DNA of 64,000 nt from an uncultured Candidatus Peribacteria bacterium (GTDB lineage Bacteria; Patescibacteriota; Gracilibacteria; RBG-16-42-10): contig CAZERA010000001.1 of assembly GCA_964514565.1 (NCBI GenBank), forward strand, positions 248,001-312,000. Reading direction: 5' to 3'. Of the stretch, positions 18,001-23,241 are shown piece after piece. A program made the position numbers. Within the stretch, counting starts at the first letter, position 1. Each line of letters starts with the position of its first letter.

Positions 18001-21000
18001 TGATGGCCGTACGGCCGGAGAAACGTGTACGTATAGCCAAAGAAACCCTGGAGATCTATGCTCCTTTGGCTGAGCGTTTGGGTATCTGGAGCTTTAAATG
18101 GGAGCTAGAAGATTTATGTTTCCGCTACCTCTTCCCTCTCCAATATCAAAAGCTCACTGCAGAAATCACCAGTGGACAAAGCCAACGGGACGCTCTTATT
18201 TTGCATATTCAAGAGTTCCTTACTAAAGAAATCGGAAAACGCTTACCCGGTGCTAAATTTCAAATAGAGGGAAGAGCAAAGCATTTGTTTTCGATATTTC
18301 GGAAAATGGAAAAAAAGCAAAAGGCTCTGTCTGAAATTTATGACATGTTTGCTATGCGTCTGATCGTTGAAAAGATCAGTGATTGTTATGCTGTACTCGG
18401 TGTAGTTCACGAACTTTGGAGACCAAAACCCGATCGTTTCAAGGATTATATTGCAGCACCAAAAGTAAATGGCTATCAGAGTTTGCATACCACAGTGTTT
18501 TGTTTTGAGGGGACCTTGGTTGAGTTTCAGATTCGTACTCAAACTATGCATGATCAGGCTGAGCATGGATATGCTTCACATTGGTTGTATAAAGATAAAG
18601 GCTCATCTCGCAAGATGGATAGCCAAAATTTAGATTGGTTGGTGCGCCTGAAAGAGCTGCAGGAATCAATCAAAGATAGTCATGAGTTTATTGAGGGGGT
18701 CAAAGTGGATCTCTTTCATCAACGTATATTTGTTTTTACTCCTGATGGTGAAGTAAAAGATTTACCTGACGGTGCTAATGCAGTTGATTTTGCCTTTGCC
18801 GTACATAGCAATGTGGGGTACAGATGTCATGGTGCAAAGGTAAATGGCAAAATTGTGCGTCTCGAAGCGCCTCTAAAAACTGGCGATGTAGTAGAGATCT
18901 TGACTAGCAAAACAACTACTGGTCCAAAGCGGGACTGGTTGCGTATTGTGGCTACAATTCGAGCAAAAAATAGGATCAAAGCTTGGTTTCGTAAACAAGA
19001 TCGTGAGGCAAATCTTAACTCTGGCCATGAATTGCTCGATCGAGAGCTGGAATTCTTTGGTAAGGGGAGATTCAGTGAAGTATCTGAGGAACGCAAAAAG
19101 GCAGTGACTGAAGCTTATCCGTCCTATAAATCATTTGAAGATATTCTGGTAGCTGTCGGTGAAGGGGAAATTTCTCAACGGGCAATTCTCAAAAAGCTTT
19201 TCTCTGACGCTGAGTTGCTCGAAGGTCATGAAGTGGTCAATAAAGAAGTTTTACCGCAAGCCGATCATGAGCAAGTTTATATTCAAGGTGAAACCAATGT
19301 GATGGTGCTTTTTGCTAAGTGTTGTTTACCAAAGAGTCCTGAAGTAATTGTAGGCTATATCACCAGAGGTAGAGGTGTGACTATTCATAGGCTCAATTGC
19401 CGTTGTGTAAAAGCACTCTCATCTGACCGATTGGTTCATGCTAGCTGGCTCAAGCCAGGCACCGTGACCAAATATGAGATTACTTTGATGGTGGAATTCA
19501 TGGATAGAGTGGGCCTCCTCCGTGATATTTTGATGGAATTAGCGAAATACAATGTCAATTTAGTCACGATCAAAGTGCTACCCAAAAATGCCCAAGGATT
19601 GGTGACAGATGAATTGGTGCTGGAAGTATCTACTGTTGATCAGATTGCGTCTTTGACCGATGCTTTATTGGTAATCCCGGGCGTAGTAAAGGCTTATCAA
19701 TTGTTGTCTACTTTGAAGCAGTAGGTTTCTTGGCTACGATACAGATATTGCGACCATCTAATCGTTTTACTTTTTGTTCTTTGTTGCTATACCAGGCCTC
19801 TAAGACAATGAGGCCTGCTGCTTTGCAGAGGGCAACCAATTCAGTTTTGGTGAAAGCATAATAAAAGCGATGATGAATGCTTTGACCATTATTGTAGGGG
19901 ATATAACTATGATGATGTGGCTCTTTTTGGACATAGTGACGATATTTTGGTTGCCACATGTTCCAAGTCGTAATAAAAATATATCCACCTGGTTTTAGAG
20001 CTGTAACTACTTTTTGTAATGTGCGTAATTGCGCTTCAGTGGTAGTGAGGTGGTGTAGGCTCGCAATAAAAAAGGCGGCGTCAAATCGTCCACGTCCGTA
20101 GTGATATACTTCCATGTCGCCTTGTTCAAATGTATAAGCAGGCCACAGCTTCTGGGCTTCAGCGAGCAGTCCATCTGATTGGTCGATGCCTACATACGTG
20201 CAGTGTTTATCTTCTAGCATCCCGAGCAGCCTACCGTTGCCACAACCAATATCAATGATGTGGCTTTGTTCGGCAATATACGGCAAGAACTCACGCATTT
20301 CGGGCCAGATGAAGTGTCTGGTTTTTGAAAAATGGCTAGCTATGTTATTGTACGCACACTGTAAATCTGTTTTGTAATCGCGATTTTTCATATGGAGCTG
20401 TCAGTACCGCAGAAAGCATATCAGCAAATGTCACCTAGCCTCTACGAGGCCAGTATGTATGTTCTGGAGAAAATTATCAAAAACAATACGCAAGATCGTA
20501 TTTTGATTGATAAATATAAGCGTGAAGCAGCTCGTTTGTTCAAGGTACCTTGTCCTGCACAAACAATTATTTTAAGTGCTTATCAAACTGCAATTGAGGC
20601 TGGCAAGTTACCAAAACTAGATTGGATTCCTCGTATTATGAAGAAGAGCGCGATTCGTACCTTGTCCGGTGTTGCTCCAATTCCTATCCTTACCAAGCCC
20701 TATCCTTGTCCGGGTAAATGTATTTACTGTCCGACTGAGGAAGGTGTTCCTAAAAGCTATAATTCCAACGAACCTGCTGTGATGCGTGCTATTACAGTGG
20801 GATGGGACAGTTATCGTCAGATGGCTAAGCGCCTTTTCGCTATGAGTACTGGAGGACATTCGGTAGAAAAAGTGGATTTGATTGTGATGGGCGGTACGTT
20901 TTCTTTTTTGCCTCGTGCTTATCAAAGTAGTGTAGTACGTAAGGCGCTTAGGGCCATGAATGAGTTTACGGTTATGCGTGCTGAAGGTCCCCGTTTCTTA

Positions 21001-23241
21001 AAAAGTTTTACCTCTTCAAATAAAAGGCCCACCTCTTTGGCCAAAGAAATGCTGATCAATGAAACTGCAGACGTGCGATGTATCGGCATTACTTTTGAGA
21101 CTAGACCAGACTATATCAATGAAAATGAAGTAATTAATTTGCGCAAATTAGGTGGCACCCGGGTAGAGATTGGAGTCCAGAGTGTTTATGATGATGTGAA
21201 TGAATTGACCAAGCGTGGGCATGGCAATAAAGAAGCGAAAGAAGCGACATTTTTGCTAAAAGAGGCTGGTTTCAAGGTGCATTATCATACAATGCCCAAT
21301 TTGCCGGGGAGCGATTTGAAACGTGATGAGGAAATGTATCGTATTTTGTGGCAAGATCCTGGTTTCAAACCTGACCAAGTCAAGATTTATCCTTGTGTGG
21401 TGACGATTGATGCTGAGCTAAAAGATTGGTTTGACCAAGGTAAATTCCATACCTATAGCGATGCCGATTTGATTGAAATGCTAACCGAGGTCAAAAAAGA
21501 TATTCCATATTGGGTACGTATTGTTCGTCTTGGTCGCGATATTCCTCAACCCAATGTTTTAGACGGTAGTCACTATACAAACTTCCGAGAGCTAGTGCAC
21601 GCAGAGATGAAGCGGAAAGGCTATCAGTGTCGCTGTATTCGCTGTCGAGAGGTACGTGATCGTCCCCATGACATCAATGATGCCCAGTTGTTTGTTGAAA
21701 AATATGAAGCGTCTCAAGGATTGGAATATTTTATTAGTATCGAAAATGCAGCCAGAACAATTTTGTATTCACATTTGAGACTGCGTATTCCTTATCACAC
21801 ATTAGCTGGAAAGAAGCACTTTATTCGTGAATTGACCGAATCTGCCTTGATTCGTGAGGTTCATACCTATGGTGAAGCTGTCCCTCTGGAGGAACGCAAA
21901 AAAGGTGCATCACAACATATGGGGTATGGTCGTTGGATGATGGAATCAGTAGATGAAATTGTCCGTAAAGAAAAGATCAAAAAGATTGCTGTTATTAGCG
22001 GGATCGGCGTGCGGGGTTACTATCGAAAACTTGGCTATCAGTTGGAAGGAACCTATATGGTTAAAAAGATTTAATAGTTCATTTTGGGGGAGTTATAGTG
22101 AAGAAAAACTATGTTTATTCTTCATGCGTTTTTAAATTTACTATATCCTCCTCGCTGTGTTGGCTGTGGATCAATGGCACGGTGGCTTTGTTTGGATTGC
22201 GATCGATCTTGGCGGCGGCAATTAGATACCAGAGTGACTGTTTATCCCGACCTGCCACTGCCAATTTTTATTGCAACCAAAGATTATTCTGATTACCTTA
22301 GTAAATTACTCTTTGCTTGGAAGTACCAGCGTTATGTGGAGTCAGCTGAGGTGCTTCAATCACTTTGGTCAGCTGCTTTTGTGCAGACTTTTGGTACTAC
22401 TCAAGCTATTACTTTGGTGCCAGTACCAATTCATTGGTTTAAATATTGGCAAAGAGGTTTTAATCAGGCTGAAACTCTGAGTCAGGTAGCTGTGCAGTCA
22501 TTTGGGATTGAACAAAAGCTGTTGCTGTCTCGTAAACATTATACATCGACCCAAGTGGGTCTTACTAAAGAGCAAAGGCAAGAAAACCTTGTGGCAGCAT
22601 TTCAAGTAAATAGTCAGGTTGCAGCAACAATCCCCAAAGAAAACACGATCGTGTTAGTAGATGATATCGTCACCTCAGGCACGACGCTTTTGCAGTGTCA
22701 GCAAGTCTTGCATCAGGCTGGATTTCACCATATTGTGGCATTGGTTTTGCATCGTGGTACCCGATCAGATTTATGAAAAAGAATTATTCTACTACCATTT
22801 ATTTACCGGTCGTCAGTGTAGTCGGTGAAACTATGGTGGCCGTGCCAAATAGCTTTGTGATCGACTGGAAGGACTTCCATATTGTTGCTTTGTGGGCCAA
22901 AATCGGCCTACGCAAAAAGAAGTTGATTCTATGGCAGGATATCTTGGAGCTCAGCAATGCTTGGTATATCCAATCAGAAGAAAGTTTCAGTGAGCCAGAT
23001 GAATTGGTGCGACTCACTGATATTTTGGCAAAAGACTTTGATCTCAAAAAAGCTGTTTGTCGTACTGAAAGCGATGTTTTTGTGGGCAGAATCAGTGATT
23101 TTACTTTCGATCTCACCACCGGACAGATTACCAACATTATGGTGGTCAATCACCAAATCCGGCCTTTGGCTCACGAACTGATGTTGCCTATTACTCAGGT
23201 GATCAGGGCAGAGGATGGCGTGATTACTATTCGTGATCTAG

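Follow-up and report, generated by a model that had tools for sequence, protein, structure and literature searches.

The window, by which we mean the whole stretch of 64,000 nt of Peribacteria DNA that was analyzed, contains 2 genes set head to head with 0 intergenic bases. On the minus strand, positions 19708-20391 an ORF and its translation give a Trm9-like class I SAM methyltransferase of 227 aa, and on the plus strand, positions 20392-22074 encode Elp3, a radical-SAM and acetyltransferase enzyme of 560 aa assigned by TIGR01211 and Pfam and predicted to be a cm5U34 synthase. Both genes begin with ATG, and the divergent start codons meet at 20389-20394 as CAT directly followed by ATG; read directly, the junction is ...TTTTTCAT and then ATGGAG.... 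The abutting junction is unchanged in 2 relatives of 88-89% identity (L013 and L014), in which the changes before Met13 of Elp3 are at third codon positions and Met22 is replaced by Ile. The host genome (1.118 Mb) uses the standard code, tRNA(UCA) being absent and an in-frame TGA occurring in neither the Elp3 nor the methyltransferase gene, and for each of Lys, Glu, Gln, Arg(AGR), and Leu(UUR) its tRNAs include U34 as well as C34 isoacceptors. Two genes 3' of Elp3, on the plus strand at 23251-24420, is a tRNA-guanine transglycosylase (Pfam TGT, 514.1 bits), mentioned as context, which likewise acts on tRNA position 34.

The initial annotation described the plus-strand gene as a full-length Elp3, and it is one. 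The TIGR01211 score of 546.5 bits exceeds the cut-off of 350 (E = 5.3e-164), with model positions 2-522 of 522 aligned to Elp3 aa 24-560, and Pfam places the Radical_SAM and Radical_SAM_C domains. The radical-SAM iron-sulfur motif CxxxCxxC is found as CPGKCIYC at 106 (C106-x3-C110-x2-C113), aligned to CPhGKCIFC of the archaeal protein MinElp3, and a second cysteine cluster, CRCIRC, is at 413. QHMGYG at 508 and YYRKLGY at 543, which we take to be the acetyl-CoA-binding motifs of the C-terminal acetyltransferase domain, are identical or near-identical in the MinElp3 alignment. MinElp3 is also the best PDB match (6IA8, E = 1.1e-113, aa 33-559), and the bacterial DmcElp3 is a weaker one (5L7J, E = 3.2e-101, aa 86-559). 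The alignments differ by the N-terminal tRNA-binding extension known from archaeal and eukaryotic Elp3, with aa 33-85 of the window protein pairing with MinElp3 residues ~6-55 and DmcElp3 pairing only from aa 86; the first 85 aa contain 14 K+R versus 8 D+E.

This extension bears on how active the enzyme is likely to be. One could propose that Elp3 here is poorly active, or has some role other than bulk U34 modification, and that for the most part U34 receives only the 2-thio group from MnmA, as is presumably the case in the many Patescibacteria lacking both Elp3 and MnmG. DmcElp3, described in the accessible text of PMC7663514 as weakly active and the sole bacterial Elp3 assayed to date, lends itself to that proposal, but the accessible text of PMC6367351 has it as a protein without the N-terminal extension, which matters for tRNA binding and activity of MinElp3. 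The window protein has the extension and all of the catalytic motifs intact, and in vitro work cited in the same paper found Elp3 activity to be triggered by tRNA and by nothing else. With the genome counts given below also considered, we hold a poorly active or redirected Elp3 to be improbable.

The minus-strand protein was said in the initial annotation to be a Trm9-like methyltransferase, and sequence, profile, fold, and active-site residues agree on that. A single-sequence phmmer search against the PDB finds Yarrowia lipolytica Trm9 of the Trm9-Trm112 complex (5CM2_Z) at E = 5.5e-19, with the runner-up at 1e-11, and a profile built from 110 sequences of the family again puts 5CM2_Z first (E = 2.3e-32, 115.3 bits), ahead of the next entry at 1.7e-24 and 89.6 bits. 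The AlphaFold2 model has a pLDDT of 94.5, and Foldseek on that model ranks 5CM2_Z first with E = 9.1e-17, TM 0.84, rmsd 2.9, and 28% identity to YlTrm9, generic methyltransferases following at about 1e-14 with 15-20% identity. Trm9 is the nearest solved relative of this protein by all 3 measures of sequence, profile, and fold, with orthology being judged by these PDB comparisons and the residues described next, not by a tree.

Yeast Trm9 has 8 residues whose Ala mutants are inactive (PMC4678810), namely R29, D72, H116, W145, W168, R241, Y243, and N271. Seven of them are identical in the window protein, as R25, D70, H114, W143, R175, Y177, and N215, and the eighth is W to Y at Y166; the N215 correspondence falls just past the pairwise alignment and is based on the profile alignment and conservation. 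Among 110 relatives, the counts in yeast order are R 110, D 109, H 108, W 110, an aromatic residue 108 (W in 86), R 102, Y 88, and N 108. Two Trm9 sites that tolerate mutation drift more, with H in 90 and Q in 81 of the same 110 relatives.

These residues are of use in weighing whether the protein is instead a Trm9 look-alike whose substrate lies elsewhere, be it at another position in RNA, on a protein, or on the carboxylate of a small molecule. Elp3 would then by itself produce cm5U34 or a derivative that some other enzyme completes. That suggestion draws on the absence of any family model that names the protein, Pfam giving generic methyltransferase domains only and every NCBIfam model being below cut-off (best 46.3 bits versus 155), and on public records, where relatives are entered as 'class I SAM-dependent methyltransferase' or as UbiE-like. 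Against it, the positions which in the Trm9 model place the uracil ring and the cm5 carboxylate are near-invariant in the family, and it is the mutation-tolerant ones that drift. We consider a look-alike unlikely.

A further point for the look-alike is that Trm112 was not found, a caveat already attached to the initial annotation and one that the larger search upholds. PF03966 reaches at best 14.5 bits in the host genome, below the cut-off of 22, and is above cut-off in 0 of 81 class genomes versus 8 of 14 controls, including all 4 archaeal controls. Weak matches of relatives to the Trm112 profile were looked into and are LysW-like zinc ribbons. To our knowledge, every characterised Trm9 requires Trm112, and we know of no demonstration of a Trm112-free Trm9. 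The surface that Trm112 would cover is informative here: YlTrm9 V59 and F78, which are shielded by Trm112, become H44 and T65 in the window protein, and 95-98% of the 110 relatives have polar residues at these sites; YlTrm9 V102 corresponds to E89. The polarity of the contact patch in the family suggests an enzyme that works alone rather than one whose partner is missing, and a methyltransferase predicted to be Trm112-independent fits these observations.

The other U34 genes of the host genome are as first annotated, with MnmG and MnmE not found and MnmA present. In profile searches, the best mnmG score is 12.8 bits against a cut-off of 524.85, mnmE has GTPase-domain matches only, of at most 88.2 bits against 252.6, and MnmA scores 401 bits against 236.95 at C1:178292-179347. 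The host genome consists of 7 contigs at 92.66% completeness, so the absence of MnmE and MnmG might be thought an artefact of incomplete metagenome-assembled genomes, but we give this almost no credence, since mnmG turned up in none of the 151 class genomes, host included, of which 132 are at least 90% complete, and in just 8 of 251 genomes sampled across the Patescibacteria, while in the bacterial controls the same search is above cut-off in 9 of 14 genomes, these being all 9 that give a hit.

To see how far the pair extends, we examine the 151 class genomes, with the methyltransferase called at E ≤ 1e-12, and the 251 phylum genomes. Elp3 is above cut-off in 126 of the class genomes (132 at E ≤ 1e-10) and the methyltransferase is in 124, with both in 123, Elp3 only in 9, the methyltransferase only in 1, and neither in 18. 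Counting from the coordinates by hand, we find the 2 genes no more than about 600 nt apart in 34 of these 123 genomes and 1.2 kb apart in 2 others, with a divergent arrangement in each; in the remaining 87 the pair is non-adjacent. That the genes co-occur as neighbors within the class, as initially annotated, is thus seen in the larger sample. The pattern had been presented as one of the class, and although it holds there, it is not specific to it. Elp3 is present in 105 of the 251 phylum genomes, and the methyltransferase in 82 by a 109-bit, full-length cut that was set after the scores had been seen; 80 carry both, 25 Elp3 only, 2 the methyltransferase only, and 144 neither, although related genomes are non-independent and such 2 × 2 tables, for the class as for the phylum, overstate the statistical weight. 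The 2 genes lie within 400 nt in 57 of the 80, all divergent and from many families, and in another 11 of the 80 they are at 0.5-3.5 kb in the same orientation. The divergent Elp3/Trm9-like pair is therefore not peculiar to one genome but an old arrangement that has been conserved in many Patescibacteria.

Returning to the substrate of the methyltransferase, the divergent place beside Elp3 and the rarity of the gene where Elp3 is missing, at 2 of 82 genomes for the phylum and 1 of 124 for the class, both speak against a look-alike. On the other side, a Trm9-like gene was not detected in 25 of the 105 Elp3-positive phylum genomes, including all 12 of family f50 and 4 of f44, and the methyltransferase of families f20 and f27 carries a fused WecG/TagA glycosyltransferase domain. 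The fusion is unexplained by a tRNA role, but the fused forms, as read from the translation, retain the same Trm9 residues.

The counts also qualify the idea of a replacement. The initial annotation put Elp3 and the methyltransferase in place of MnmEG; the part that MnmEG is not found stands, but a one-for-one swap is overstated, because 138 of the 251 phylum genomes show no Elp3 and no MnmG. With MnmA detected in 222 of the 251, life without a known xm5U pathway seems to be common in the phylum, and within the class there is a family (f9) in which Elp3, the methyltransferase, and MnmG are each found in 0 of 15 genomes. Such genomes are what a poorly active or redirected Elp3 would have to its credit. 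Elp3 is nevertheless retained in those 126 of 151 class genomes, which are of about 1 Mb, along with a dedicated partner gene, and this is a reason to think that its function has been maintained. With no known U34 C5 enzyme in over half of the Patescibacteria sampled, one may ask how split codon boxes are decoded there.

Our best reading, which we consider probable, is that cm5U34 is formed by Elp3 and converted to mcm5U34 by the Trm9-like enzyme, with MnmA adding s2. By its family membership and conserved motifs, Elp3 would use radical-SAM chemistry and acetyl-CoA to put a carboxymethyl group onto C5 of U34. The Trm9-like enzyme, predicted to work without Trm112, would then use SAM to methyl-esterify the carboxyl of cm5U34, a step we infer from active-site conservation, fold, and gene linkage. 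MnmA, encoded elsewhere, would 2-thiolate tRNA-Lys, -Glu, and -Gln to give mcm5s2U34. With the bacterial MnmE-MnmG route apparently not encoded, there would be a two-step C5 pathway of archaeal/eukaryotic type instead, and, as far as sequence comparisons can indicate, this suggests that a large bacterial group modifies its wobble U in the archaeal/eukaryotic way and not in the usual bacterial way.

A few lineages without a Trm9-like gene have a different neighbor beside Elp3, a protein of 260-285 aa consisting of the AsnB synthetase (PP-loop) domain alone with no glutaminase domain. It adjoins Elp3 in G273, G162, and G317, which represent 3 families, and at 2 of 80 metagenome loci; most of its relatives are not beside Elp3. 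The chemistry of the AsnB domain is ATP-dependent carboxylate amidation, matching what is needed to convert cm5U to ncm5U, a conversion that occurs 'by a yet unknown mechanism' according to the accessible text of PMC6367351. As a speculation that we would not expect to hold, Elp3 in Patescibacteria might stand at the center of a modular U34 pathway in which the tailoring enzyme encoded beside it is swappable, being in most lineages a Trm112-independent Trm9 (for mcm5(s2)U) and, in those few lineages, the AsnB-domain protein.

Patescibacteria account for a sizeable share of bacterial diversity. If the Elp3, Trm9-like, and MnmA pathway is right, mcm5U and mcm5s2U would occur beyond eukaryotes and archaea and be the normal wobble-U modification in a large share of this phylum. 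It would also revise 2 statements in the accessible text of earlier work, that bacterial Elp3 is rare (PMC6367351, PMC7663514), DmcElp3 being termed 'a rare example of bacterial Elp3s' where 105 of the 251 Patescibacteria sampled here have Elp3, and that bacteria are without homologs of Trm112-dependent methyltransferases (PMC5372719). Our literature search found no publication on a bacterial Elp3-Trm9 pair, and the accessible text of reviews gives no bacterial Trm9.

Among known systems, the MnmE-MnmG route (with MnmC) to (c)mnm5(s2)U34 modifies the same atom, C5 of U34, in the same kinds of tRNA and also together with MnmA, but its enzymes, cofactors, and product are unrelated, and in the phylum sample its MnmG never occurs with Elp3 (8 genomes and 105 genomes, 0 with both). 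The Dehalococcoides mccartyi Elp3 (5L7J) is bacterial and stand-alone with the same two-domain core, but the window protein has about 85 extra N-terminal residues, aligning from MinElp3 residue 6, by comparison with the protein described in the accessible text of PMC6367351; the accessible literature on the Dehalococcoides protein mentions no partner methyltransferase. A full-length bacterial Elp3 could be a better model than this N-terminally short one. The Elp3 of M. infernus (6IA8) is likewise stand-alone, with no Elp1, 2, 4, 5, or 6, and shares the N-terminal extension. Archaea also provide the closest parallel for the pair, as the accessible text of PMC6144793 describes H. volcanii Trm9-Trm112 and a Sulfolobus gene cluster in which Elp3 and Trm9 are together as they are here; archaeal Trm9 partners Trm112, which was in 4 of 4 archaeal controls and 0 of 81 class genomes. 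The present host, in contrast, is a bacterium and has the bacterial MnmA as its 2-thiolase. In archaea and eukaryotes, the 2-thiolation route is Ncs6/Urm1. The fungal Trm9-Trm112 enzymes (Y. lipolytica 5CM2; S. cerevisiae Trm9), which convert cm5U34 to mcm5U34, have the same class I SAM fold as the window methyltransferase and, apart from W168, the same functional residues. A Trm112-independent Trm9 would offer a simple, soluble model of an enzyme otherwise hard to handle. The window protein differs from the fungal one in having polar residues in place of the Trm112-covered hydrophobic patch and no Trm112, being shorter at 227 aa with no inserts and about 28% identical, and standing head to head with Elp3.

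The 227-aa methyltransferase (METHYLTRANSFERASE) is encoded by an open frame on the minus strand at window 19708-20391, and Elp3 by an open frame of 560 aa on the plus strand at 20392-22074. The 2 genes are head to head with no bases between them, the start codons touching as CAT/ATG. The same junction is present in 2 relatives at 88-89% identity (loci L013 and L014), where the changes just inside Elp3, before Met13, are all at third codon positions and Met22 is Ile in both, which favors an Elp3 start at the first ATG, or no later than Met13. The surrounding genes are RadC, RelA/SpoT, the pair, a ComF-like phosphoribosyltransferase, TGT, and a ParB-like protein, with the 3' part of RelA/SpoT sharing 17 nt with the methyltransferase in overlapping ends. 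Because the start codons abut, the promoter and any leader of each gene must sit within the other gene, and the two transcripts may lack leaders or carry leaders that overlap. A promoter and terminator scan of window 19500-22400 gives 6 promoter-like sites versus 6.5 expected, which is chance level. The sequencing runs with matches, which are at contig level and show no starts or expression levels, are mostly wastewater and activated-sludge DNA, and include one RNA run with 0.06 of the query words. By eye, window 20370-20420 has no Shine-Dalgarno-like purine run before either ATG.

Elp3 is full-length, as the initial annotation had it, scoring 546.5 bits on TIGR01211 against a cut-off of 350 and covering the whole model. 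The nearest solved structure is the Elp3 of M. infernus (MinElp3; E = 1.1e-113, aa 33-559 against residues 6-517), the second is that of D. mccartyi (DmcElp3; E = 3.2e-101), with an alignment only from aa 86, and eukaryotic Elp3 structures are found at about 1e-96 to 1e-93. The radical-SAM cysteines C106, C110, and C113, the CRCIRC cluster, and the QHMGYG and YYRKLGY motifs are all present. The window Elp3 has an N-terminal extension, whereas DmcElp3 lacks it; in MinElp3 the extension is reported to matter for both tRNA binding and activity (PMC6367351). Searching named-genome contigs with the single Elp3 protein gives 2 close relatives only, and Elp3 proteins of Patescibacteria are already named as such in public annotation. 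The NCBIfam/PGAP product name on TIGR01211, 'tRNA uridine(34) 5-carboxymethylaminomethyl modification ...', is that of the MnmEG product, unlike the descriptions in the publications consulted, which give the Elp3 product as 5-carboxymethyluridine. Single Elp3 frames of 742-859 aa are found at G008:C4:30578-32665, G138:C40:15506-17899, and G145:C50:1249-3639, with the family match split near model position 180 by an insertion of ~160-250 aa, perhaps an intein or an inserted domain.

For the methyltransferase, the family libraries give generic class I methyltransferase domains only, and the scores on NCBIfam models all stay far below the cut-offs. Public records name the relatives generically (ten clusters looked up gave one uninformative name), the named ones belonging to Candidatus Abawacabacteria at 59-62% identity. 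Atlas look-alike clusters, which are leads only, come from Microgenomatota, Chloroflexota, Altimarinota, Nanobdellota, and giant viruses. Such generic annotation favors the main rival reading, that the enzyme acts on some other substrate, as does a fusion to a WecG/TagA domain in families f20 and f27; we rate this reading as improbable. Three independent comparisons, by sequence, profile, and fold, nevertheless point to Trm9, as the initial annotation had proposed. With phmmer against the PDB, the top match is 5cm2_Z, the Trm9 of Y. lipolytica (E = 5.5e-19; runner-up 1e-11). With a profile built from 110 relatives, the same chain scores 115.3 bits at 2.3e-32, the runner-up being at 1.7e-24 and 89.6 bits. 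The AlphaFold model (pLDDT 94.5, pTM 0.91) has 5cm2_Z as its first Foldseek match (E = 9.1e-17, target TM 0.84, rmsd 2.9, 28% identity), followed by many generic methyltransferases at about 1e-14 with 15-20% identity.

More telling are the residues. In S. cerevisiae Trm9, Ala mutants of R29, D72, H116, W145, W168, R241, Y243, and N271 are reported to give zymocin resistance and loss of activity, whereas H115A and Q149A are tolerated (PMC4678810). Via the 5cm2 alignment, the essential eight become R25, D70, H114, W143, Y166, R175, Y177, and N215 here. Among the 110 relatives, the first four are kept as R in 110, D in 109, H in 108, and W in 110, and the remaining four as an aromatic in 108 (W in 86), R in 102, Y in 88, and N in 108. 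The tolerated positions are less constrained (H in 90, Q in 81). With the essential positions kept and the tolerated ones looser, the constraint falls on the residues that, in the published model, keep the uracil ring and the cm5 carboxylate in place.

In the proteins of class families f20 and f27, of about 490-540 aa, the N-terminal half is the Trm9-like methyltransferase, and the C-terminal half is a glycosyltransferase domain of the WecG/TagA/CpsF type that scores 159.5 bits. One of 491 aa is encoded at L015 1500-2975 on the minus strand (from G033:C1), and fusion-type frames of 488-537 aa are also found in G018, G045, G057, G067, G097, G107, G115, G123, G131, and G138. The fusions retain the Trm9-type residues, and Elp3 is elsewhere in the same genomes.

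Eukaryotic and archaeal Trm9 are described as requiring Trm112 (PMC4678810, PMC6144793). The earlier finding of no Trm112-like match extends beyond the source genome (G000), where the best PF03966 match is 14.5 bits against a cut-off of 22 and lies within a 960-aa frame. None of 81 genomes of the class Gracilibacteria is over that cut-off, and 8 of 14 control genomes are, all four archaea among them. Sub-threshold PF03966 matches in 2 genomes of the same genus were considered as a hidden Trm112 and rejected, as they are a LysW-like zinc-ribbon protein of ~95 aa. This small acidic protein (Zn_ribbon_LysW, 37.8 bits) is kept in the genus; it is found at L031 889-1173 and has a homologue in G000, outside the window, at C1:339175-339339 on the minus strand. 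The hydrophobic Trm9 residues reported to be shielded by Trm112 are V59, F78, V102, A110, P112, and F116 (PMC4678810), corresponding by alignment to H44, T65, E89, H97, G99, and F103 here; family-wide, only 5% and 2% of sequences have a hydrophobic residue at the V59- and F78-equivalent positions, respectively. As no Trm112 is encoded and the shielded positions are polar, we read the protein as a stand-alone methyltransferase and, judging from sequence, it probably works without Trm112.

The other genes of U34 modification in G000 are as previously reported: mnmG is not found (best score 12.8 bits versus a cut-off of 524.85), nor is mnmE, whose only matches are the GTPase domains of other GTPases (at most 88.2 bits versus 252.6), and MnmA is present at 401 bits. 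Genetic code 25, under which the methyltransferase frame would extend into Elp3, was considered for G000 and rejected. Neither gene of the pair has an in-frame TGA and the anticodon UCA is absent among the 41 tRNA genes, so G000 reads the standard code. Both U34 and C34 isoacceptors are encoded for Lys, Glu, Gln, Arg(AGR), and Leu(UUR). The tRNA-Arg anticodons include GCG and UCG (C1:240643-240719 and C4:62277-62351, outside the window) and not the usual bacterial ACG; a tRNA-Arg(CCU) is within the window at 30859-30934, and a tandem of three tRNA-Ser(GGA) genes is at C1:479357-479870.

The occurrence of Elp3 and the Trm9-like gene without MnmG, earlier proposed for the class, is confirmed in 151 class genomes, G000 included, and proves broader, extending to the phylum. 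In the class, Elp3 exceeds the cut-off in 126 genomes and reaches E ≤ 1e-10 in 132, the methyltransferase is found in 124 (single-protein query, E ≤ 1e-12), and mnmG in 0 of 151. Both genes are present in 123, Elp3 only in 9, the methyltransferase only in 1, and neither in 18, where 7 of the 27 genomes lacking a methyltransferase match were assigned from per-family tallies. Elp3, the Trm9-like gene, and mnmG are all missing from the 15 genomes of family f9, which are ~99% complete. By hand count, the pair is within ~600 nt in 34 of the 123 genomes and at 1.2 kb in 2 more, all divergent, and is not adjacent in the other 87.

Across 251 genomes of the phylum Patescibacteria, each at least 85% complete, mnmG is found in 8, Elp3 in 105 (103 over the cut-off), both together in 0, and neither in 138; MnmA is found in 222. 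The initial annotation placed the pathway in place of MnmEG; replacement is too simple a term, since most of the phylum is without MnmG regardless of Elp3. Phylum genomes with neither Elp3 nor MnmG, and those of class family f9, seem to lack any enzyme known to act on C5 of U34. The single-protein search finds the methyltransferase in 75 of the 251, and 4 of 12 fetched 'Elp3-only' loci have a diverged copy adjoining Elp3. As that search misses diverged copies, it was repeated with the profile, giving scores in 2 groups, full-length at 109 bits or more and core-only (positions ~7-145) at 105 bits or less; the Trm9-like cut was set at 109 bits after this split was seen. By this criterion the gene is present in 82 genomes; both genes occur in 80, Elp3 only in 25, the methyltransferase only in 2, and neither in 144. 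The matches are 10-227 nt apart in 57 of the 80, and all 57 are divergent. In 11 more they are 0.5-3.5 kb apart, divergent too, with unrelated genes inserted; 2 have them on one contig but far from each other, and 10 have them on different contigs. The inserts include an IS200-type transposase, an HD phosphohydrolase, a Mur ligase, DUF2330, and others, and being mutually unrelated, they led us to reject the idea that some third gene is conserved with the pair, whether between its two members or next to them. Since the sampled genomes are akin, the class and phylum tables should be read as the description of a pattern rather than as a statistical test.

Among the 25 Elp3-only phylum genomes are 4 of family f44 and every one of the 12 of f50, and Elp3-positive genomes without the methyltransferase gene are a further point in favor of another substrate for that enzyme. 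In the 3 f50 loci looked at, the divergent neighbor of Elp3, in the usual place of the methyltransferase, is a nucleoside diphosphate kinase of ~200 aa with an N-terminal extension (L019 1665-2261, L020 4456-5067, and L021 4564-5172). In the class genome G003, where Elp3 is present without a Trm9-like match, a protein of 245 aa that belongs to no Pfam family (P0339, contig C6, L025 4243-4980, minus strand) ends exactly at the Elp3 start on the same strand. A protein of 260-285 aa consisting only of an AsnB synthetase (PP-loop) domain adjoins Elp3 in three genomes, of three families, that have no full Trm9-like gene. It is divergent from Elp3 and truncated at the contig end in G273 (L030 4334-4765), a genome with a borderline methyltransferase match elsewhere (100.9 bits), divergent with a SLOG-family gene between in G162 (P0340, L023 1454-2305), and directly upstream on the same strand in G317 (L042 2322-3113); the protein is also recorded at L045 and L070. 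The idea that the short AsnB-like family is linked to Elp3 in general was rejected, as Elp3 is immediately downstream in 2 of 80 metagenome loci and not in the other 78. As a carboxylate-amidating partner converting cm5U to ncm5U, the AsnB-domain protein is a low-probability candidate, whose chemistry would fit and whose linkage is sparse.

The best-supported explanation of the pair, and to us a reasonably likely one, is a predicted two-enzyme pathway in which Elp3 would form cm5U34 and the Trm9-like enzyme would convert it to mcm5U34, with MnmA adding the thiolation expected to give mcm5s2U on thiolated tRNAs. The interpretation as mcm5(s2)U34, put forward in the initial annotation, has in silico support. 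The analysis itself shows the genes, their family or look-alike assignment, the conserved residues, the lack of MnmEG and Trm112, and the conserved divergent linkage, from which the enzymatic steps, the product, and the independence from Trm112 are all inferred. On the Elp3/Trm9 pathway in Patescibacteria or CPR, nothing was found in the full-text literature, most subscription papers and supplements being outside its reach; the matching works consulted concern Thorarchaeia (PMC10849945), general code evolution (PMC8879553), and methyltransferases of CPR, with Trm9 and Elp3 not among the subjects. DmcElp3 has been termed 'a rare example of bacterial Elp3s' (PMC6367351), and 'numerous bacteria' are credited with Elp3 in PMC13315578, citing Selvadurai 2014. 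In Sulfolobus, the Elp3 and Trm9 genes are reported to be clustered (PMC6144793). The pathway is thus of a known type and the group of hosts is the unexpected part, together with a probable Trm112-free Trm9 and the strong conservation of the divergent gene arrangement.
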